Sequence record: KX009778
Strand: one strand, 5' to 3'
DNA from: Escherichia phage UFV-AREG1
DNA: 64,000 bases
The notes below the pieces were generated by a model that was given only the letters and a program-made list of their open reading frames with translations, did not search any database and was not told the DNA's origin. Positions 5,812 to 55,880 of this stretch are shown here, in pieces; the stretch's first letter is position 1, and every line of letters begins with the position of its first letter. Position numbers and translations under genes: made by a program.

Positions 5812-6081
5812 TTAATTAAACAGTGGAGCGATGCGTTTCAGAAGAGTAGCAGCACCTTTGGCGAATTTTACATCATGAAAAACAGTTTCTTCTTCCGTTA
5901 CAACACGAGCTTTAATGTTTTCACAATCCCAATTTTTGCGAACAATCTTCAAAAGCTGCAGTAAATCTTTACATTCAGCAATATCGATAACACATCCACG
6001 AGAATCTTCCATTATCGCACGATAACCGTAAGCCATACCATAATCGTTGAAAGATTGCTCGATGATAATTAAGTTTTCCAT
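5812..6081 (-). CDS. hypothetical protein
   Basis: ORF 5812-6093; start moved to second ATG (MENLIII) because the first ATG lies inside the shared GGAGAATAAAATG leader. Confidence 0.45.
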   Translation of the reverse strand: MENLIIIEQSFNDYGMAYGYRAIMEDSRGCVIDIAECKDLLQLLKIVRKNWDCENIKARVVTEEETVFHDVKFAKGAATLLKRIAPLFN

Positions 6082-6178
6082 TTTATTCTCCAAGTTGTTT
6101 TCTGTATCAGTAGTTGATATTGATATAGTACCATAATCAACTACTGATGTATATAGTTTTATGAAAAAATTTTAAACT

Positions 6179-6667
6179 TTATGCATAGAGAGCATTGCTA
6201 TAGTGTTTAATCCAACTTTCAGGAATGACTTTGTATGTTCCTAAAAATACCACATTGTATAACTTAACGCCATCTTCTACCCATTGATCGGTAATATATC
6301 CACACATAGCACGAGTATAAGCAGCCTTTCCATCATCTTTGATAAATTTAAATTCGCAAGGAGCAATGAACTTAATAGCTTGACCGAGTTTCCACTTAAA
6401 GTCTACGCCTACATGCGAAGTATCAATCGTTTCAATTCCTTTAGCAGGAACAGCTTTCAAAAACGCAGATTCAAGAAATTTCGCACGAACATAGCCAAAC
6501 TGAGGTTTAGACTTTCCATCTTTAGGAATGATACGCACTTTTACTTCAGAATCTTCATCTTTAACGCCATGTTTAAGCTGAATGCTTACAATTTCGACCA
6601 ATTTTCCTGCTGCTTTAGAGCGGGATTTATCAGATACACGAGCTAATTCACCAATATTAATAATCAT
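6179..6667 (-). CDS. MotB-position protein (possible DNA-binding early protein)
   Basis: 162 aa, same length as T4 MotB and same position upstream of dexA; early promoter at 6712-6741; paralogous to 6741-7151. Confidence 0.55.
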   Translation of the reverse strand: MIINIGELARVSDKSRSKAAGKLVEIVSIQLKHGVKDEDSEVKVRIIPKDGKSKPQFGYVRAKFLESAFLKAVPAKGIETIDTSHVGVDFKWKLGQAIKFIAPCEFKFIKDDGKAAYTRAMCGYITDQWVEDGVKLYNVVFLGTYKVIPESWIKHYSNALYA

Positions 6668-14798: not shown

Positions 14799-14828
14799 AT
14801 TATACCATACTCATTTTGATATGTAAAC
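14799..14828 (-). promoter_or_regulatory. early promoter (part of stem-loop/promoter cassette)
   Basis: minus strand GTTTAC-18-TATAAT directly downstream of stem-loop 14844-14861. Confidence 0.55.
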
Positions 14829-14843
14829 CGGTAAAATGAAAAA

Positions 14844-18722: not shown

Positions 18723-18752
18723 ACTATACCATAGTCTTGTCAGCTTGTAAAC
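18723..18752 (-). promoter_or_regulatory. early promoter for dmd
   Basis: minus strand GTTTAC-18-TATAGT; -10 embedded in palindrome CAAGACTA..TAGTCTTG. Confidence 0.5.
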
Positions 18753-23770: not shown

Positions 23771-24151
23771 TCACTTAGTCAAATTTTTTACGCATGAATT
23801 ATAAGAATTCACTACATACTCCATCGGAGCATTTTTACCGGTACGCCATTGGTAATTATTAGCCCAATTTGCCCAAAGCTCGGCGCAGTAGTTTTCAATT
23901 TTTTCTTCGCGTGTAATTACATCCGAATTACGATATGCTTGAGCAGATTCATCTGGACGAATAGCTTCGTCAAAATTTGCCTGCATTTGTTCTACTGTTT
24001 GCTTTGGAGCTTCTTTATAACACTTGACATTAGGATTATAAAATTTGCTTGAACAGTTTACAATTTTTCCTTCATCAGACTGATTTACTACCGGTCCTTG
24101 AGCTACACAACCAGTAAGACATAATGCAATAACCAAAATAGCGATTTTCAT
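23771..24151 (-). CDS. putative lipoprotein
   Basis: 126 aa; signal peptide with lipobox LTGC (MKIAILVIALCLTGCVAQG). Confidence 0.5.
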   Translation of the reverse strand: MKIAILVIALCLTGCVAQGPVVNQSDEGKIVNCSSKFYNPNVKCYKEAPKQTVEQMQANFDEAIRPDESAQAYRNSDVITREEKIENYCAELWANWANNYQWRTGKNAPMEYVVNSYNSCVKNLTK

Positions 24152-24161
24152 AATAATTTCC

Positions 24162-24398
24162 TCAAATGCAAGTAGTAATTACTCCAGTAGTGCTTATGCA
24201 GATATTACCCATTTGCACACCTAAAGACCCATTTGTATTCACATGAAGATTATCATCAATTTTAACTGATATTTTACCATTAGTGTGAATAACGGTGCTA
24301 GATTCAATCACAGGTTGAGTATCATTTTCAACACTAACAAATGGAACTGCTGCTAATGCAACTAAACACACTGCTAAACATCCCATAACAATTTTCAT
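24162..24398 (-). CDS. small secreted protein
   Basis: ORF 24162-24410; start moved to MKIVMGCLAV (signal peptide); first ATG lies in the shared GGAGAATAAAATG leader. Confidence 0.5.
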   Translation of the reverse strand: MKIVMGCLAVCLVALAAVPFVSVENDTQPVIESSTVIHTNGKISVKIDDNLHVNTNGSLGVQMGNICISTTGVITTCI

Positions 24399-24419
24399 TT
24401 TATTCTCCAAATCTGTATC

Positions 24420-24462
24420 AGTTGATAGTTGTATAGTACCACAGAGGAACAGTCTTGTAAAC
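24420..24462. repeat. 43-bp dispersed repeat (promoter cassette), second copy at 50173-50215
   Basis: AGTTGATAGTTGTATAGTACCACAGAGGAACAGTCTTGTAAAC identical at both loci; partial third copy at 51614-51657. Confidence 0.8.
24433..24462 (-). promoter_or_regulatory. early promoter (cassette copy)
   Basis: minus strand GTTTACA-17-TACTAT; 43-bp identical to 50173-50215. Confidence 0.55.
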
Positions 24463-24549
24463 AGTTTTGTGAAAAATTTTTAGGGAATTCTAAAGGTCCA
24501 GAATCATCTGTTTTTCATAAGTATAGATTTATATTACTTGTATGAAAAA

Positions 24550-24565
24550 GGGACCCGGAGGTCCC
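24550..24565 (-). terminator. stem-loop downstream of gene 43
   Basis: GGGACC-CGGA-GGTCCC. Confidence 0.5.
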
Positions 24566-24578
24566 TAGATTTATTCTA

Positions 24579-27275
24579 TCAGCCAAACAGGAAGTCTAAC
24601 GAAGCTTTTTCTTCATAGTCCATACCAGCCGATTCACACATGCCCGCAAGCGGTTTAACAAACGATTTTTGGAACAAAGTTGAGTAGTCAATCCAAGACA
24701 GTACATCAGAACGAATTTCTTTTGGAAGTTCTGTACCCGACGGCCAAGCAATGCACTTGTCACCAAATGGATTTCCCTCACGTAATGGAAGAACCATTAC
24801 CTTATTTCCATCCAAAATTGGAGCTACACCTAAACCGTTAACAGCTCGACGATAAGTTAGCACACCACGAATATGGAACGGACATTTAAATCCTGGCCAA
24901 CCTTTATCATCATATTTCGCTATATCGTTCGCAGTTTTTACTTCAGCAATAACTTTATAATCAAGTTGACGATATTCTTTCTCAAAGTTCTTATAGTATT
25001 CTTGGACAGACTCTTCGCCTTCCTGAAGAATGCGACGAATACTTTCTTCGAGAGCTTCTTGCACTGCTTTTGGTGTTGAACTCTGCTGAGTTTCCATACC
25101 CATGATTTTTAGATGTGGTTCAGCAAATCGCTTATCTTCCATATCATAAACGTTCAGAGCATAACGTTTTTTCGCTTTCCAAAATCCACCGACACCCTTT
25201 GAACCAAGCGGAGGACAAGAAATAGCTTCACGGTCCATATGCATCAGATGCTCGCGGTTATTCATATAATCACATAACTCACGATATGCAACATCAATCA
25301 TAGGTTCCATCTTTTTCTTACCAAACTGATTCATGAATTCAACTAAATCATTTTGTTCTTTAAAGCGGTCAAGACCTACTTTTTCAATTACTTTATCTAC
25401 ACAAACATATACCGAATCAGTATCACCTGCTGCGATGAAATCTTCACCATCAGTTCCACACACTTTATTCAGATATTCATTAATTTTACGAGCAATCCAC
25501 TGAATACCAACTTGACCAAAAATTGTGATAGCAGTAGCATTTCGCAAATCATAGTAACGGAAATGAATATTACCAAGAGCACCATAAAGACTGTTGATAA
25601 GAATTTTACGGTTCAGCTGATTTGTGTTAGCAAGTGTAGCTGCTTTTTCACATTCTTCGATCAGACTATTAAGAACAGATTCAGTGTAATTCGATAATTC
25701 GTTTAAGAAATCATCACTGAACTTAACATATCGTTCAACTTCTGGTTTAGTTGAGCAAGACCCTGCACCTTTCATAATAATCTTTTTAATAGCTTCGGCA
25801 TTCATTTCTTCGGCGAACATTTTCTTTTTCCAATCTTTACGCTGGAAAAATACTTTAGCGATTTCCTTTGGAATGATACCTTCTTGATGCTTATCATACA
25901 TCCATCCATTCGGAGAACAAGAATATTCATCACTCGGTTTAGGAGCTGTTCCTGCGATATATTCATGAATTGGATGAACTTTAAACTGACCACGAATAGT
26001 CTCAGGACTAATGTTAACCTGACGAATAATGCTCGGATACAGAGACGTCAAGTCAAAACTCATAATATATCGACGAGCAATTGGTTTAGGTTCAAATACA
26101 AATGCACCCGGAAAACTTTGTTTAACGTGCGAACCTTGTTGAGGAATAACCTTGTGTTCACTTTTCAGTGAGTTAAAAATAATAGCATCCCAAGTTTTAA
26201 TAGGACTCATTACACCAGAAAAAGGCATTTTAGCGTAATAAGACATACTTAAAACTAGATCAATAAACCCGCGAATTTTATCAATTGCTTGAACTGATTC
26301 TACGTCAATGATGTTATAACTGATGTATCGTTGATGATTAGTCTCACGAAGTTTATTAATAGGACCGTCGTATGGTAATTTGCCCTTTTTGGTTTCATGT
26401 TGAGCAACTGATTCCAAAGAGAATGACGGCAAATTAGTAAATGCGAATTTCTTGTACAAATCTAAATAATCAAGAATAGATACGCCATCAATAGAATAAA
26501 TTTCTTTGCTACCGTACACATTTTGAATTAGTTTAGATTTTACTCGACCGATTGGAGAGAAGCGTTTCATACTACGTTCACCGAGAACCATTTTAACGCG
26601 ATTCATGATATACGGAACGTCAAATCCCTCAATATTCCAACCAGTAAAAATAGCAGGTCGTTTCTGTTCCCAGAGATTGATATATTCCATGAGCATATCA
26701 CGCTCATTATCGAATGGCATATAAATTACTCGGTCAAGAATTTCTTGAGGAACTTCATCACCACCTTCACAGTCAAGCTTAGCAGCTAGCTTTGCATCCC
26801 ATTTTGATACTGAACCATACATTGAATTCAAAAGGTCGAAAACATAAAAACGATCATCAATTGAATCGTAATGAGTGATAGCATCAATTTCATATTCAGC
26901 TTTCATTGGGTCAGGAAATTTATCACCAGTAACCTCAATGTCACAGTTAGCTACACGAACAAATTTTCGGTCATAAACAATTTCTGAACCGTATGTATCA
27001 CTGATATAAGCGAGTTTAAAATCGTTCATACCGAGAGCTTCGAGACCGATGTCTTCCATTCGTTTCATCCAATCTCGAGCATCTTTCATTGATGGAAATT
27101 TTTGAGGAGCGCAGTTTTTACCATAGATGTCTTTGTACTTTGACTCTTCCTTACAATGCCTAAACATAGTTGGAAGATATTCTACTTCACGAGTACGTTC
27201 ATTTCCATTTTCATCAATATAACGCTCAACAATGTTATTTCCGACTGTTTCAATAGAGATATAAAATTCTTTCAT
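24579..27275 (-). CDS. 43: DNA polymerase gp43 (family B)
   Basis: 898 aa as T4 gp43; exonuclease and polymerase motifs (e.g. YGDTDS) present. Confidence 0.95.
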   Translation of the reverse strand: MKEFYISIETVGNNIVERYIDENGNERTREVEYLPTMFRHCKEESKYKDIYGKNCAPQKFPSMKDARDWMKRMEDIGLEALGMNDFKLAYISDTYGSEIVYDRKFVRVANCDIEVTGDKFPDPMKAEYEIDAITHYDSIDDRFYVFDLLNSMYGSVSKWDAKLAAKLDCEGGDEVPQEILDRVIYMPFDNERDMLMEYINLWEQKRPAIFTGWNIEGFDVPYIMNRVKMVLGERSMKRFSPIGRVKSKLIQNVYGSKEIYSIDGVSILDYLDLYKKFAFTNLPSFSLESVAQHETKKGKLPYDGPINKLRETNHQRYISYNIIDVESVQAIDKIRGFIDLVLSMSYYAKMPFSGVMSPIKTWDAIIFNSLKSEHKVIPQQGSHVKQSFPGAFVFEPKPIARRYIMSFDLTSLYPSIIRQVNISPETIRGQFKVHPIHEYIAGTAPKPSDEYSCSPNGWMYDKHQEGIIPKEIAKVFFQRKDWKKKMFAEEMNAEAIKKIIMKGAGSCSTKPEVERYVKFSDDFLNELSNYTESVLNSLIEECEKAATLANTNQLNRKILINSLYGALGNIHFRYYDLRNATAITIFGQVGIQWIARKINEYLNKVCGTDGEDFIAAGDTDSVYVCVDKVIEKVGLDRFKEQNDLVEFMNQFGKKKMEPMIDVAYRELCDYMNNREHLMHMDREAISCPPLGSKGVGGFWKAKKRYALNVYDMEDKRFAEPHLKIMGMETQQSSTPKAVQEALEESIRRILQEGEESVQEYYKNFEKEYRQLDYKVIAEVKTANDIAKYDDKGWPGFKCPFHIRGVLTYRRAVNGLGVAPILDGNKVMVLPLREGNPFGDKCIAWPSGTELPKEIRSDVLSWIDYSTLFQKSFVKPLAGMCESAGMDYEEKASLDFLFG

Positions 27276-27335
27276 AGATATTCCTTAGTTTATAGCCCGA
27301 GTTATTAGGCTCTTGATATATTATACTCCAATTAA

Positions 27336-27349
27336 GGGGCCGAAGCCCC
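27336..27349 (-). terminator. stem-loop with UUCG-type tetraloop upstream of gene 43
   Basis: GGGGC-CGAA-GCCCC. Confidence 0.45.
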
Positions 27350-27353
27350 TTGC

Positions 27354-27575
27354 TTAAATTAGTACTATTTGTCGGGTGAAAATTGTCAATCCATCTACAT
27401 TAATTGACTTAACGACTGCAGTAAAGTGTTTTTGTTCTGGGTGAATTAATTTTTGAAATTCTACCTGAAATTTTAGTTGGAGGTTTTCTGGTAAATCAAA
27501 AAGTGTTTCTGTCGCAGAAAGATTATATTTTTCTTTAAGAGACGCCATGTATTCTTGCGGAGTTATAGCAGTCAT
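27354..27575 (-). CDS. hypothetical small protein
   Basis: ORF 27354-27617; start moved to MTAITPQEY so that it abuts the regA stop. Confidence 0.4.
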   Translation of the reverse strand: MTAITPQEYMASLKEKYNLSATETLFDLPENLQLKFQVEFQKLIHPEQKHFTAVVKSINVDGLTIFTRQIVLI

Positions 27576-27576
27576 A

Positions 27577-29471: not shown

Positions 29472-29504
29472 AATTTCCTCATTCAAGTTTTAGTGTAAAT
29501 TAAA

Positions 29505-39767: not shown

Positions 39768-40238
39768 TTAATCATGTTTCCACACCCCATCGGTATTTGA
39801 CCAAAGTCGCTGATTATCTGATCCTCGCCACAGCTTTTTAGTCGGAAGATTTTTCTCATACTTCCCATCAATAATAACATCAACATATTTAAGCATTTCT
39901 AGTTGTTTAATATCTTCAAACTTATATCCTGTCCACAACCAAATGCTTTTATTGGGATAAAGATTTTTTACTGTTTGAACCACAGAGTGAATCACGTCTC
40001 TGTTATCAGGATAAAGAGGGTCACCTCCGGTTATAGTTAATCCTTCTATATAATCATTATTCAAACATTCAATCAATTGTTCTAGTGTTTCACCAGTAAA
40101 TGGAATACCATTTCTAGCATTCCATGTTGATTTATTATAACACCCTTCGCATTTATGCAAACATCCAGTAACGAAAAGAACTGTCCTGCATCCAGGACCA
40201 TTAACAAAGCAGCACGGGTATATTCTGTCATAATTCAT
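39768..40238 (-). CDS. nrdG: anaerobic ribonucleotide reductase activase NrdG (radical SAM)
   Basis: 156 aa as T4 NrdG; Cys cluster CRTVLFVTGCLHKCEGC. Confidence 0.85.
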   Translation of the reverse strand: MNYDRIYPCCFVNGPGCRTVLFVTGCLHKCEGCYNKSTWNARNGIPFTGETLEQLIECLNNDYIEGLTITGGDPLYPDNRDVIHSVVQTVKNLYPNKSIWLWTGYKFEDIKQLEMLKYVDVIIDGKYEKNLPTKKLWRGSDNQRLWSNTDGVWKHD

Positions 40239-41067
40239 TTATATATTTCCAATTATAGCCTTCAACACTTTTACGTTCGCCATTTAAACATTTTAAAATA
40301 TTTCCTTTGCTAGAAATATTAAAATATTTTGCTGCGTCTGGTATATAATTAAATGTTTTTAAAAGAACACCATCTTTATATGCGCCAAATAAATTAAGAG
40401 TATATTTTTCTCGAAGACGCTGATGTTTCCTTTTCATAACCTCAGGATTTGCATACGCCAACTTCAATGAATTTCTGTGTTTTTCTTTTACTTCAGGTTT
40501 TTGCATTGCTAACTTAGTTAGCCTGGAAATTTTATTTCTAACTTCGTCAGTTTTCATTGCATTTGACAAATTTAATAAAGTTTTATTTCTAACTTCAGGT
40601 TTTTGCATTGCTAACTTAGTTAGTTCTCTATGTCTTTTTCTAAAATCGTCATCCTTCCATATATTTTTCGATAATTTTGACATAGAGCGGTGAAATAATT
40701 CCTTTTCACTGGAATACAATTTAAAAATTTCATCCAATTCATCCGCATTAAATCTATCGGTATTCGAGTTTATCATTCTATGAAAGGCATAACACATTTT
40801 ACTATTGCTTGTTTTAGCTAAATAGTAATGAGCTAACGCATGGTCATAATATGACAAATTAACAATATTCCATTTATCTGTTTTATATTCAGGAAATATA
40901 GATTTGGGAAGCACGTGATGTGCTTCCGTTTTTCCTTTTATTTTAGGATTATTATAATTTTTTGTTATCAAATCAACATATGACAATAGTAAATCATTAT
41001 TTTCTTCAAATATTAAAGCTAATTTATCATTCACAAAATCGCAAGGATAAAATCTATCATAATTCAT
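40228..41067 (-). CDS. HNH homing endonuclease
   Basis: 279 aa; HNH-type motif AHHVLPKS...N...HALAHY; repeated LTKLAMQKPEV helices; inserted between nrdG and nrdD (the slot T4 mobC occupies). Confidence 0.7.
   Translation of the reverse strand: MNYDRFYPCDFVNDKLALIFEENNDLLLSYVDLITKNYNNPKIKGKTEAHHVLPKSIFPEYKTDKWNIVNLSYYDHALAHYYLAKTSNSKMCYAFHRMINSNTDRFNADELDEIFKLYSSEKELFHRSMSKLSKNIWKDDDFRKRHRELTKLAMQKPEVRNKTLLNLSNAMKTDEVRNKISRLTKLAMQKPEVKEKHRNSLKLAYANPEVMKRKHQRLREKYTLNLFGAYKDGVLLKTFNYIPDAAKYFNISSKGNILKCLNGERKSVEGYNWKYINEL
40491..40623. repeat. 31-bp perfect direct repeat inside HNH endonuclease gene
   Basis: CTTCAGGTTTTTGCATTGCTAACTTAGTTAG at 40491-40521 and 40593-40623; encodes repeated LTKLAMQKPEV helix. 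Confidence 0.8.
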
Positions 41068-47205: not shown

Positions 47206-47235
47206 ATTATACCACATCCTTGTGGCAAAGTAAAC
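47206..47235 (-). promoter_or_regulatory. early promoter for coiled-coil family member 2
   Basis: minus strand GTTTAC-18-TATAAT; spacer CCACAAGGATGTGG also found in promoter 2429-2458. Confidence 0.55.
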
Positions 47236-48260
47236 TAGTTCAGTGCATTTAGTGCATTGTTCAGTTTAGAACGTTGCTTTGTCAGATTTTGAACCCTTGA
47301 CTGAGCTTGTTCTAACACCTTTTCAGCTTCTAGCACTTCATTTGTCGCTTTAACGAGTTCATCATCTACTGCCTTAAGAGACTTCTCAATCGCGTCAGCG
47401 TGCCATTTTTCTACAGGTTTAAAATTTGAATTTTCAGTAGGAAGAAAACTCACTTTATTAAGTTTACATGCATCTATATTGCTTGAGCTATACATCCAAA
47501 ATTTAGGATCGTTTGATGAGTAATTGGATAAATTTAAATTTAAGTTATCTTGCACTTCCTGCTTTTTCTCTTGCGTGACTTCGTCCTTTCTCAAAAAATC
47601 GTATTTAAATGAAACGATCATATCAAGTTCATACGTTGTTGTGTCTAATTTAAATCGTTCAAAACGAGGTAAAATCTTAGATTGAACAGCAGCAACAACA
47701 TCCATATACTTAAATGCTTCTGTCAACTGCGATTTAAGGCATTCGCAAATTGAAAGAGAATTTTTTGTATTAGGTTTAAAGCTAATTCGTGCAGTTCTAT
47801 TATTTTCTTTAAATGGTCTTACTTCCATCTGAAGAGTATAACCATCAAATTTCAGATTCTTTAAGTTAATATCAGAACCTTTTAATCGACTAGCCGTAGA
47901 CAAAATTTGCTTTAATTGTTTACGGAATAGAGCAATAAATCTCCATTCAAGACGATAATGATTTGGATTAAAAAATCCTGTTGATAAATCAACCTTACTC
48001 TGACCAACGCCTTGAACAAATAGAGGATTTTTATAATCAATAGTTTTACAGAAATCGGTGAGCTGCTCACGAGCAGTCATTTGTGTAATATACCCCGCTT
48101 TACTAAAATGACGTAACCATTCACTGCTATTCATATACTTAAAGTGAATGGAACTATTAACTCTATCAGGGTCTAAATTATTTTGGCACAAAAATGTCAT
48201 AACATTACGGGTATAGCTGGCATTACGAACCATATCTTCAATTTGAGAACGAGTTTTCAT
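47235..48260 (-). CDS. coiled-coil-tailed family protein, member 3
   Basis: 341 aa; starts MKTRSQIEDM; C-terminal helix ...ELVKATNEVLEAEKVLEQAQSRVQNLTKQRSKLNNALNALN. Confidence 0.55.
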   Translation of the reverse strand: MKTRSQIEDMVRNASYTRNVMTFLCQNNLDPDRVNSSIHFKYMNSSEWLRHFSKAGYITQMTAREQLTDFCKTIDYKNPLFVQGVGQSKVDLSTGFFNPNHYRLEWRFIALFRKQLKQILSTASRLKGSDINLKNLKFDGYTLQMEVRPFKENNRTARISFKPNTKNSLSICECLKSQLTEAFKYMDVVAAVQSKILPRFERFKLDTTTYELDMIVSFKYDFLRKDEVTQEKKQEVQDNLNLNLSNYSSNDPKFWMYSSSNIDACKLNKVSFLPTENSNFKPVEKWHADAIEKSLKAVDDELVKATNEVLEAEKVLEQAQSRVQNLTKQRSKLNNALNALN

Positions 48261-49629: not shown

Positions 49630-50157
49630 TTATGCGAGTACCGTCTTTAACCGTTCTTCAAACTTCCGAAGAGTATTTTGGCGTTCAGCTCTTTGCTTTT
49701 TGTAAGTTTCAATACGCTCTGAAATGAGAGTGTATCGTTCATTTACTGATTCTTTCATAAAATCAGGAATTTCACGAGAAGCTTTAATCTCATCAAATTT
49801 ATCAATAACAGCTTGCTCTTCAGCAATTAAGTTATCATACATCAAAATATCTTTCTTGATGAACTCAATATCTTCTTGAGTTACACGAGATAATTTAGAT
49901 GCTTTATCCTTTTTGTACTGTTCGTTAGTATCACGAGACCAGTGTAATGTACGATTTTTATTCGTATTTTTGTAAATTTCTACAATACCAATCTCATCAA
50001 TAATAACGATCCAATTCCAACGGGATTTGTAAATTTGTCCTCCATCAACTGTGATTTCACCTCCGATTGAGATGTCATTAAAGAACTTGCTTTGTGCTTC
50101 TGATTTAAATTTACCATCATTGTAATTTACCAGGTTGAAAATATCTTTAGCGTTCAT
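49630..50157 (-). CDS. hypothetical protein
   Basis: 175-aa ORF; promoter copy 50186-50215 upstream. Confidence 0.5.
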   Translation of the reverse strand: MNAKDIFNLVNYNDGKFKSEAQSKFFNDISIGGEITVDGGQIYKSRWNWIVIIDEIGIVEIYKNTNKNRTLHWSRDTNEQYKKDKASKLSRVTQEDIEFIKKDILMYDNLIAEEQAVIDKFDEIKASREIPDFMKESVNERYTLISERIETYKKQRAERQNTLRKFEERLKTVLA

Positions 50158-50185
50158 TTTCTGTTCCTCCGTAGTTGATAGTTGT

Positions 50186-50215
50186 ATAGTACCACAGAGG
50201 AACAGTCTTGTAAAC
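50186..50215 (-). promoter_or_regulatory. early promoter (cassette copy)
   Basis: minus strand GTTTACA-17-TACTAT. Confidence 0.55.
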
Positions 50216-50621: not shown

Positions 50622-51590
50622 TTATTTCAGAAGAGTAACCTCAGCGATTTCTTCCCAACCGTTTTTGTCGGTCATAATAAAGTCAGCAAGATAAAGAGCA
50701 GTACGCAGTGAAACATTGCGTAAACGATTAACATTGACTTTCATCCATGATAATGCTTTATAAGTTTCTTCATCAGAAAGACCGCGCTTTTGCATCATGT
50801 CGGTTGAAAGAATAACATCTTCAACCCTGACCATAATTTCTTCATTAGTGTGAACACCCAAATCCAAATAAACTGAGCGGGACACCAATGCTTGTAAATG
50901 TGGAGCAAGTTTAGTACCACGGTCTAATTCGCGGTCAATGTCAACGTTTGTGATAAAAACAATCGTTCCTTTAAATTCAAACTCACGCTCAATGCCTTTT
51001 TCTTCTAAGTAAGAAGACGCAGTACTCCAGCAGACTTTACGGGTCTCTCCAGTGTCCAGAGCGGCTTTTAGAAGATTAAGAATGTCCATATCAGAGAAAA
51101 CATCCACATCATCAATCAAAAGGACAGAATTCTCTTCACGATTATTCCAAAGCTGCTCATAAAGACCAATACCAGAGATTTTACCATTAATGCTTTTATA
51201 TTCAATGTATCCAATATCATTTGCTTTATTTAAAGCTTTATCTAAAGAATACGTTTTACCAATACCTGCTGCGCCAGAGATAATTAATGAACGAATATTT
51301 CCATTAATAATACCATTCGTCATCATTCCCATAACATTAAATCTTTTATTAATGCGGGTTTTCATATCTTCATATGATTCTTTAACTTCTTCAACTTTTA
51401 CACCATCATATGAAATATCTGATTTGTAAACCCAAACACCGCGACGTTTACCGTCAATTTCAACAAAAACTTTACCATCTCCTTGTGCATCTACCGGAGC
51501 ATTATCTGGGAACCATTCGCCTAAGAGCTCAAAAGTTCCAGAGATTTCTTTACCGAAGTAGATACCCTTATTGATAGTTACAGTTTTCAT
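50622..51590 (-). CDS. P-loop NTPase (AAA-like ATPase)
   Basis: Walker A GAAGIGKTYS and Walker B LLIDDVD; start moved to MKTVTINK behind shared leader; promoter 51628-51657. Confidence 0.6.
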   Translation of the reverse strand: MKTVTINKGIYFGKEISGTFELLGEWFPDNAPVDAQGDGKVFVEIDGKRRGVWVYKSDISYDGVKVEEVKESYEDMKTRINKRFNVMGMMTNGIINGNIRSLIISGAAGIGKTYSLDKALNKANDIGYIEYKSINGKISGIGLYEQLWNNREENSVLLIDDVDVFSDMDILNLLKAALDTGETRKVCWSTASSYLEEKGIEREFEFKGTIVFITNVDIDRELDRGTKLAPHLQALVSRSVYLDLGVHTNEEIMVRVEDVILSTDMMQKRGLSDEETYKALSWMKVNVNRLRNVSLRTALYLADFIMTDKNGWEEIAEVTLLK

Positions 51591-51627
51591 TTTATTCTCC
51601 AAATCCGTATCAGTAGTTGATAGTTGT

Positions 51628-51657
51628 ATAGTACCATAAAGCTTTATGCTTGTAAAC
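51628..51657 (-). promoter_or_regulatory. early promoter for P-loop ATPase gene (cassette copy)
   Basis: minus strand GTTTACA-17-TACTAT, stem-loop 51685-51709 just upstream. Confidence 0.55.
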
Positions 51658-51684: not shown

Positions 51685-51709
51685 AAAGGGGGACCTCTAG
51701 GGCCCCTTT
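51685..51709 (-). terminator. extended stem-loop (cassette)
   Basis: AAAGGGG...CCCCTTT with inner pairing, followed by promoter 51628-51657. Confidence 0.5.
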
Positions 51710-51717
51710 GTGTTGAT

Positions 51718-52203
51718 TTATTCCATTTCTACTATGTGCATGTTCTTTTTGCTATCAAAATATATGTTTTTAACTATTAACTCAGAATTAATTGGCAGTA
51801 AAAACTCTCTTTCATAATCTACCATGCAAAGATTATCATAAAGCTTGTTAAGCTTATCATCGTCAGTTTGACCAGATTCTTCAATTGCGATTAAATTTTC
51901 TAAAATGTCAATCATAGCAGTCGAATAGTCGAAAACGTTTGCATTTTTTAACACTACTAAAACATTAGTCATATAGCGTTCTGCCGCAAACGTTTCAGCT
52001 ATATGAGACTCACTGCTAAAGGAAGTTATTCTTTTAAATTTGATTCTCCTATTAACTTCAAACTTATAAGATAGCACTTCCTCTATTGTAAGTCCTCTAA
52101 AAAGTGTGTCTTTAATCTCAAGTTTGTCTTTAATGTAATCATTAACACGCTTATGATTAAAATCATTAATTTTGTTGCCAAGGCATTGCATTAAAATATG
52201 CAT
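51718..52203 (-). CDS. hypothetical protein
   Basis: 161-aa ORF flanked by stem-loop/promoter cassettes. Confidence 0.5.
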   Translation of the reverse strand: MHILMQCLGNKINDFNHKRVNDYIKDKLEIKDTLFRGLTIEEVLSYKFEVNRRIKFKRITSFSSESHIAETFAAERYMTNVLVVLKNANVFDYSTAMIDILENLIAIEESGQTDDDKLNKLYDNLCMVDYEREFLLPINSELIVKNIYFDSKKNMHIVEME

Positions 52204-52249
52204 TGTATTCTCCTCAATTTTTAAAGAGCAATTAATTAACTACACATAT

Positions 52250-52279
52250 ATTATAATATGCTTTGCGGCAGAAGTAAAC
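52250..52279 (-). promoter_or_regulatory. early promoter (cassette)
   Basis: minus strand GTTTAC-18-TATAAT, stem-loop 52308-52325 just upstream. Confidence 0.5.
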
Positions 52280-52307
52280 AACTTTGTGGCGTCATTTTAA
52301 ACAAAAA

Positions 52308-55835: not shown

Positions 55836-55865
55836 ATAGTATCACAGCTCAAATGGAAAGTAAAC
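55836..55865 (-). promoter_or_regulatory. early promoter (cassette)
   Basis: minus strand GTTTAC-18-TACTAT, stem-loop 55881-55898 just upstream. Confidence 0.55.
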
Positions 55866-55880
55866 CGGTAAAATGAAAAA

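Follow-up and report, generated by a model that had tools for sequence, protein, structure and literature searches.

The window analysed here is a stretch of 64,000 nucleotides from Escherichia phage UFV-AREG1 (sequence record KX009778). It belongs to Tequatrovirus, is 96-98% identical to hundreds of T2/T4/RB-type genomes and is collinear with T4; an earlier note, made from the letters of this DNA, had called the source a lytic phage, and the genome is indeed that of a T4-like lytic phage. A 43-nt sequence, AGTTGATAGTTGTATAGTACCACAGAGGAACAGTCTTGTAAAC, occurs in the window at two distant places. Copy 1 lies between the DNA polymerase gene 43 and an accessory ORF of 78 amino acids (ORF78), copy 2 lies in front of nrdC.8, a diverged copy 3 in front of nrdC.10, and a degenerate copy 4 in front of an 89-aa ORF (Table 1). 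All repeat, promoter and leader elements are on the minus strand, as are the genes around the copies. The repeat string had been recorded earlier with the right letters, in the reverse complement of the functional sequence, which on the minus strand reads GTTTAC AAGACTGTTCCTCT GTGGTACTAT ACAACTATCAACT, that is, GTTTAC-N14-GTGGTACTAT-ACAACTATCAACT.

Table 1. Features at the four copies of the repeat and around them; positions are those of the window.
Feature	Position	Strand	Remarks
89-aa ORF	5812-6081	-	PHROG 3720; behind copy 4; followed by cef
Copy 4 leader	6079-6111	-	ends in GGAGAATAAAATG; RegB/S1 consensus 6091-6081
Copy 4, degenerate	6112-6154	-	-35 ATATAC; -10 TACTAT; then ATCAATATCAACT
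imm.1 homologue (DUF5481)	23771-24151	-	followed by imm
ORF78, accessory 78-aa ORF	24162-24398	-	PHROG 4189; signal-peptide-like N-terminus; between promoter/leader and imm.1
Copy 1 leader, GATACAGATTTGGAGAATAAAATG	24396-24419	-	Shine-Dalgarno GGAG; RegB/S1 consensus GGAGAATAAAA 24408-24398; ATG 24398-24396
Copy 1, 43-nt promoter core	24420-24462	-	placed by motif positions and exact-repeat search; GTTTAC 24462-24457; TTTACA (-35) 24461-24456; TGG 24441-24439; -10 TACTAT 24438-24433; then ACAACTATCAACT
A/T-rich UP-element-like block, CTAAAAATTTTTCACAAAACT	24463-24492	-	upstream of copy 1; near-identical to the block upstream of copy 3
Intrinsic-terminator-like hairpin AGGGACCTCCGGGTCCCT and T run	24544-24566	-	hairpin 24566-24549; begins 12 nt past the gene 43 stop
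DNA polymerase gene 43	24579-27275	-	upstream neighbour of copy 1
nrdC.8 homologue, 175 aa	49630-50157	-	PHROG 2274; predicted to be driven by copy 2
Copy 2 leader, ACGGAGGAACAGAAAATG	50155-50172	-	different leader type (GGAGG)
Copy 2, 43-nt promoter core	50173-50215	-	GTTTAC (-35) 50215-50210; -10 at 50191-50186
nrdC.10	50622-51590	-	predicted to be driven by copy 3
Copy 3 leader, ACTGATACGGATTTGGAGAATAAAATG	51588-51614	-	RegB/S1 consensus 51600-51590; then nrdC.10
Copy 3	51615-51657	-	GTTTAC 51657-51652; -10 and initially transcribed block of copies 1 and 2 kept
Terminator-like hairpin, GGGGCCCTAGAGGTCCC	51690-51706	-	upstream of copy 3
603-nt insertion relative to T4	51691-52293	-	abuts copy 3; 19-nt junction overlap in the terminator/T-run

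The genes behind the copies have little in common. Proteins encoded behind copies 1 and 2 fall in different PHROG families, and ORF78, found in about 320 database phages, is missing in T4 and RB3; in T4, imm.1 is the first gene behind the promoter at the copy 1 locus. The nrdC.10 protein has weak, sub-threshold matches to AAA/STAND NTPases over residues ~96-203 (Pfam E-values 6e-5 to 7e-3) and sub-threshold matches at 1e-4 to PHROG clamp-loader families, which suggests a P-loop NTPase. A literature search on nrdC.8, nrdC.10 and imm.1 returned only irrelevant immunology papers. At the fourth locus, comparison of T4 (around position 6550) with the window (5874-6073) reveals a 200-bp internal deletion of the 89-aa ORF in T4, with the leader, the ATG and the 3' end retained.

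The identity of the two copies was confirmed by whole-window search, which matched the 43-mer at 24420-24462 and 50173-50215 with 0 mismatches, as had been claimed; there are no further copies at up to 3 mismatches within the 64-kb window, and 100 shuffles of the window gave 0 matches. Exhaustive search for exact repeats puts the maximal identity between the two copies at exactly 43 nt, making this the longest exact direct repeat in 64 kb (the runner-up, 32 nt long, is intragenic). The identity ends sharply at the -35 box on one side and at ...CAACT on the other, so that the loci at 24.4 kb and 50.2 kb share the 43-nt promoter core only; upstream sequence, leader and genes differ. The partial copy reported earlier at 51614-51657 is real, with 35 of 43 positions identical in register to copies 1 and 2, though it starts at 51615; its exact stretches are 22 nt long against 24420-24441 and 24 nt long against 50171-50194. 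That the repeat might be an assembly artefact, or a chance similarity, is barely conceivable: besides the absence of matches in shuffled sequence, both loci have the same sequence in many independently sequenced phages, which also answers the doubt raised with the original claim. A replication origin or packaging site at the repeat was considered and rejected, as the anatomy gives no hint of either and the only annotated T4 origin in the collinear region (oriA, gene 56) is elsewhere.

The earlier designation of the sequence as a promoter repeat is borne out by its anatomy, which at copies 1-3 is that predicted for a T4-type early promoter: TTTACA, a 17-nt spacer, TGn and TACTAT, with an A/T-rich UP block upstream and an ORF in the right orientation and at the right distance downstream; the -35 box of copy 4 is degenerate. 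The T4 early consensus is GTTTAC-N14-gtggTAttaT (Miller et al. 2003, as quoted in GenBank record MZ726795); GTGGTACTAT has one mismatch to gtggTAttaT, and the core fits the consensus otherwise. On the same consensus, phage ASO78A has T4 early promoters annotated at its orthologous sites before nrdC.8 and nrdC.10. These promoters have been described as UP/-35/TGn/-10 promoters with further consensus regions beyond the hexamers (Hinton 2010, PMC2988021; Nolan et al. 2006, PMC1524935). By this consensus and the T4 literature, we infer that the 43-mer is the active core of an immediate-early sigma-70 promoter of the T4 type and spans about -36 to about +7; at copy 1, transcription is predicted to start at about 24426. 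The predicted leaders of copies 1-3 are 22-31 nt long, and at copies 1, 3 and 4 a GGAG stands 6 nt before the ATG. A simple scan of the window finds about 21 promoters of the GTTTAC type upstream of ORFs on the minus strand. Members of the sub-family to which the repeat belongs share an A/T-rich UP block, GTTTAC, a free spacer, TGGTACTAT, ACAACTATCAACT(ACT)GATAC and, mostly, the leader GGAGAATAAAATG.

Outside the core, the four copies are built somewhat differently. The block AAAAATTTTT(T)CACAAAAC occupies the UP position at copies 1, 3 and 4, and the corresponding zone at copy 2 is A/T-rich coding sequence, GAAAAAATTGTGAAAGAAGTTTCTTTTAG, a weaker UP match; here the nrdC.9 stop codon (50220-50218) is only 2 nt upstream of the repeat, and there is no hairpin. 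Copy 3 has a different spacer, AAGCATAAAGCTTTAT, containing the palindrome CATAAAG/CTTTATG, and at copy 4 the spacer and the initially transcribed block pair into a strong hairpin. No hairpin of the kind present in some promoter-early stem-loop cassettes (PeSLs) of the RB49 type was found by folding inside the 43-mer itself (z-scores +0.5 to +0.8). The terminator-like hairpin behind gene 43 is kept in 10 relatives, and a putative terminator is marked at the same spot after gene 43 in T4 record M37159. The hairpin at 51690-51706 and copy 3 together are a predicted terminator-plus-promoter composite. Within the first few minutes after infection, these promoters would be read by the sigma-70 RNA polymerase of the host: copy 1 would restart transcription past the gene 43 terminator, into ORF78 and imm.1 and probably, by read-through, into imm, and copy 2 would drive nrdC.8.

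Several other early promoters of the window have secondary structure of their own. In five of them (-35 at 6154, 6741, 7749, 18752 and 55053, minus strand), strong inverted repeats such as CAAGACTA-TGGTATAG-TAGTCTTG extend across the -10 box, with z-scores of -3.8 to -6.7 against shuffles. In the promoters at 18752 and 55053 the hairpin is kept and the stem sequences are different. These five resemble the RB49/phi1 subclass of PeSLs with a stem-loop over the -10 box.

A related leader had been reported before the genes at 6081, 24398 and 51590, and GGAGAATAAAATG is exact at all three, on the minus strand (6079-6091, 24396-24408 and 51588-51600). Because an in-frame TTG stands 12 nt upstream of the real ATG (TTG GAG AAT AAA ATG; at copy 1 the TTG is at 24410-24408), the ORF-finder took it as the start and produced false MENKM N-termini. 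Annotated relatives start the three genes at the ATG, in agreement with the suspicion, voiced earlier, that these N-termini are artefactual. For annotation, ATG rather than the upstream TTG should be taken as the true start of the three genes, the four early transcription units and their terminators can be marked, and the shared leaders can be flagged as probable RegB targets.

The last assignment comes from GGAGAATAAAA, as it matches in every letter the sequence that Durand et al. (2006, PMC1702504) found T4 early mRNAs to need if RegB/S1 is to cut them efficiently. The general form of the site is GG*AGRAYARAA, cut between GG and AG, with the optimum GGAGAAUAAAA (PMC1702504; PMC3014915). GGAGRAYARAA has three matches in the window, 0.24 being expected, and all of them are the three shared leaders. 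The shared leader GGAGAATAAAA(TG) would thus be a Shine-Dalgarno region doubling as an optimal RegB/S1 site, at which a cut would switch the early mRNAs off; regB, whose gene is outside the window, is assumed to be present in this phage as in the genus. The nrdC.8 leader of T4, assayed as an early transcript, is cut only moderately by RegB (PMC1702504). Folding of the four leaders found no significant structure (z-scores -0.2 to +0.7), which agrees with the single-stranded RNA that RegB sites need and rules out a structured riboregulator there, and an Rfam scan of the whole window matched no family, so that the leader cannot be assigned to any known RNA element.

That two of these cores are identical is not explained by promoter function, because over all 210 pairings of early promoters in the window the median is 21 identical positions out of 43 (sd 4), and the spacer positions have no consensus across the roughly 21 promoters. 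Copies 1 and 2 match at 43/43; the next best pair is at 35/43. More can be learned from the alleles in relatives, which were counted with short junction-specific BLAST queries against the database. In T4, RB3 and SholemSchwarzbard, the spacer at the imm.1 locus is AAGACTGTTCTTCCAT, and the T4 copy there differs from the 43-mer of the window by three spacer bases; other phages have ATCCCTGTTCTTCTAT-type spacers at this locus, which resemble that of another family member. The nrdC.8 promoter, for its part, has ...CCTCTGT in every genome examined. At the imm.1 locus, the window is Sholem-like on both sides (UP block, leader and ORF78) and has the nrdC.8 type at the three spacer bases. In its full length, this imm.1-locus allele is found in about 136 records, T2 included, and the T4 allele in 184; it is an old polymorphism, widespread and not private to this phage. 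No record in the database is identical to the window over the 62-nt junction; the closest is RB18, with one mismatch. T2 has the 43-mer at the imm.1 locus together with an nrdC.8-type leader and a different ORF of 83 aa, and its own two copies differ by one base (T vs C); this does not point to a recent conversion within the T2 genome.

These alleles are best read as the outcome of short-patch exchange between paralogous cassettes of the PeSL kind, which is the simplest account, and we infer its direction and mode. Homologous exchange between the cassettes would have made the copies identical: a patch of no more than about 45 nt, with GTTTAC at the -35 box as one boundary and ...CAACT as the other, would carry the nrdC.8-type spacer into the promoter of the imm.1 locus, the donor being either the resident nrdC.8 promoter or, in a mixed infection, a co-infecting T2-type phage. 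The explanation as a whole, a T4-type early promoter cassette with a RegB-site leader and short-patch exchange between such cassettes, is in our judgement very probably correct.

Other readings of the identity fare worse. The earlier note suggested recent cassette transfer, and an exact 43-nt repeat, the longest in the window, could indeed be left behind if a whole cassette of promoter and gene had recently been transferred or duplicated between two loci of this phage; cassettes do move, as the nrdC.8-type core and leader before three different genes elsewhere attest. This reading is nevertheless quite unlikely: identity stops at the -35 box and at ...CAACT with upstream sequence, leaders and genes differing, the proteins are in different PHROG families, and the same allele occupies the same locus in about 136 records including T2, hence it is not recent here. 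That both loci converged independently on one optimal promoter sequence is highly improbable, even though T4 early promoters have consensus beyond the hexamers (PMC2988021) and the -10 box with the initially transcribed block is exact at no fewer than seven loci. Such an optimum would have to sit at the spacer AAGACTGTTCCTCTG, and the spacer is essentially unconstrained over the window promoters, with the median identity given above; family members at other loci have unrelated spacers, T4 functions with spacers that deviate by three bases at one of the loci and by one base at the other, and the three bases by which the window departs from the T4 allele are precisely those of the paralogue.

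One may also ask whether the shared segment is kept by a further function, as a protein-binding or recombination-joint site or as a 5'-UTR signal of a subclass of early transcripts. The 21-mer GGTACTATACAACTATCAACT, which runs from the -10 box to about +8, is exact at six loci of one T4-like genome from IMG/VR, where spacers vary freely, and indel junctions are found directly after ...CTATCAA. Overall, GGTACTATACAACTATCAACT is seen at no fewer than seven types of loci, including those of motA, nrdC.8, nrdC.10 and imm.1, with UP block, -35 box and leader kept and spacers unrelated (the IMG/VR scan for the 21-mer covered about 6 genomes and serves to define locus types, not as a census); behind one such locus is an ORF beginning MSKVTYIIKAS, which we take to be motA. 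Against a further function speak the lack of an Rfam match in the whole window and of significant structure in the leaders, and the same pattern would be produced by promoter, start-region and RegB/Shine-Dalgarno constraints combined with concerted evolution; we consider it very unlikely. The more specific proposal that GGTACTATACAACTATCAACT might be a joint devoted to the exchange of cassettes, or might mark the 5' ends of a subclass of immediate-early transcripts, for instance for capping, S1 loading or timed decay, is also unlikely; if the joint reading were true, the 43-nt identity would be the footprint of frequent ectopic conversion between joints.

Under the preferred reading, short-patch exchange between cassettes, what else can recombination between the copies do? 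Exact repeats of this kind had been proposed as substrates for deletion or duplication, which is formally true. The interval between copies 1 and 2, however, is 25.75 kb long and collinear with T4 genes 43, regA, 62, 44, 45, 46, 47, 55 and nrdD/G, and its deletion would be lethal, because replication genes would be lost; a duplication of 25.75 kb would probably not fit a headful. Singer and co-workers are said to have reported in 1982 that T4 recombination drops sharply below about 50 bp of homology, and 43 bp is marginal by that measure. Realistic outcomes are short-patch conversion and local swapping of modules. A viable excision, that of nrdC.9-nrdC.10, is more plausible between the neighbouring copies 2 and 3, at a distance of 1,442 bp.

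Modular shuffling in T4-like phages by PeSLs, which are mobile regulatory cassettes, is known, and the T4/PST consensus of these elements is TTTACW-N17-TAYWAT (Arbiol et al. 2010, PMC2839356; Comeau et al. 2014, PMC4122927); a further PeSL trait is the excision of mini-circles when neighbouring cassettes recombine. Over 112 nt, copies 1 and 3 agree at 79% of positions and differ mostly in the spacer, in keeping with the conservation over about 100 bp of a PeSL. Insertions abut the cassettes, as in PeSLs: ORF78 and the 161-aa ORF of the window, the 83-aa ORF of T2 and three ORFs of the IMG/VR phage L015. Relative to T4, the ORF78 insertion spans 24152-24384, with a 14-nt junction overlap at ATGAAAAT... 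The 603-nt insertion next to copy 3 is missing in T4 and most relatives and is present in T2; it has its own GTTTAC early promoter (52279-52250), is flanked by hairpins (52326-52307 and 51706-51690), and contains the 161-aa ORF (51718-52203, minus strand), a ModA-like protein that matches the PHROG family 'RNA polymerase ADP-ribosylase' with an E-value of 7e-24 and has no Pfam family. In L015, the three extra ORFs separate the nrdC.10 promoter core (...CTATCAA) from GGAGAATAAAATG, yet other ORFs are found between nrdC.11 and nrdC.10 in ASO78A, and the genes that follow the nrdC.8-type core and leader in different phages are unrelated to one another. As homologues of the T2 ORF83 and of the L020 ORF were not found in the window, no gene was duplicated along with the promoter. 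Such cassettes, then, may also serve as crossover points for insertion and swapping of accessory ORFs, in the manner of PeSLs. Only 3-4 of the roughly 15 indels between the window and T4 adjoin these cassettes; several others are at sites of T4 homing endonucleases or introns (segF, segA, mobB and I-TevII).

The window contains other repeats and indels. A second near-identical pair of promoter cores (31/32 nt; GTTTACTTT[A/G]CCACAAGGATGTGGTATAAT), located at 2429-2460 and 47206-47237, is 44.8 kb apart and has a small spacer hairpin, CCACA...TGTGG. A block of terminator hairpin, T-run and -35 box, CTCCTTCGGGAG..TTTTTCATTTTACCGGTTTAC, is found at 14823-14843 and 55860-55880, 41 kb apart, and extends upstream on the minus strand to about 14858 and 55895; it looks like another paralogous terminator-promoter composite. 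The 32-nt exact repeat at 40490-40521 and 40592-40623, with 102-nt spacing, is inside a 279-aa ORF (40228-41067) that occupies the position of the T4 homing endonuclease mobC and is diverged from it; the repeat encodes LTKLAMQKPEV. Another insertion relative to T4, 215 nt long (27362-27576), lies between gene 43 and regA next to a GC-rich hairpin (27330-27363), one of a family of three, the others being at 29498 and 37848.

All components of this picture, early promoters, RegB sites and PeSL cassettes, are known T4 biology, and no new principle is involved. What the locus offers is a clean small example of T4-like phages reusing promoter/leader cassettes as probable crossover points, the same core being found before accessory genes that differ between T2, T4, the window phage and metagenomic relatives. 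The likeness to T4 immediate-early promoters includes GTTTAC at -36 to -31, the 17-nt spacer, TGn, the -10 box and the A/T-rich upstream block, as well as the minus-strand orientation before ORFs of the early region, and the orthologous T4 sites before imm.1, nrdC.8 and nrdC.10 bear the same cassettes with 0-3 base differences. The -10 box of the window is TACTAT, not TATAAT, and nothing essential differs. The imm.1-locus copy, unlike that of T4, has the nrdC.8-type spacer and would drive the extra 78-aa ORF that T4 lacks. With RegB/S1 sites, the shared leaders have in common an exact 11-nt optimum that overlaps the Shine-Dalgarno sequence of early-region genes in unstructured RNA; the nrdC.8 leader, GGAGGAACAGA, departs from this consensus.

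The resemblance to PeSLs is one of layout: a terminator hairpin is followed by an A/T-rich region, an early promoter, a Shine-Dalgarno sequence and a start codon, the cassette recurs in the genome next to ORFs that differ between close relatives, and indel junctions fall inside it. The copies follow this layout to different degrees. At copy 3 the hairpin ends 33 nt from the -35 box; at copy 1 it ends 87 nt away, looser than the 'just upstream' of PeSLs; and copy 2 has no stem-loop and shares sequence with the end of nrdC.9, which makes it an ordinary early promoter and not a complete PeSL. Copy 1 also adjoins a core gene, gene 43, although PeSLs flanking gene 43 have been reported for RB49 and phi1.
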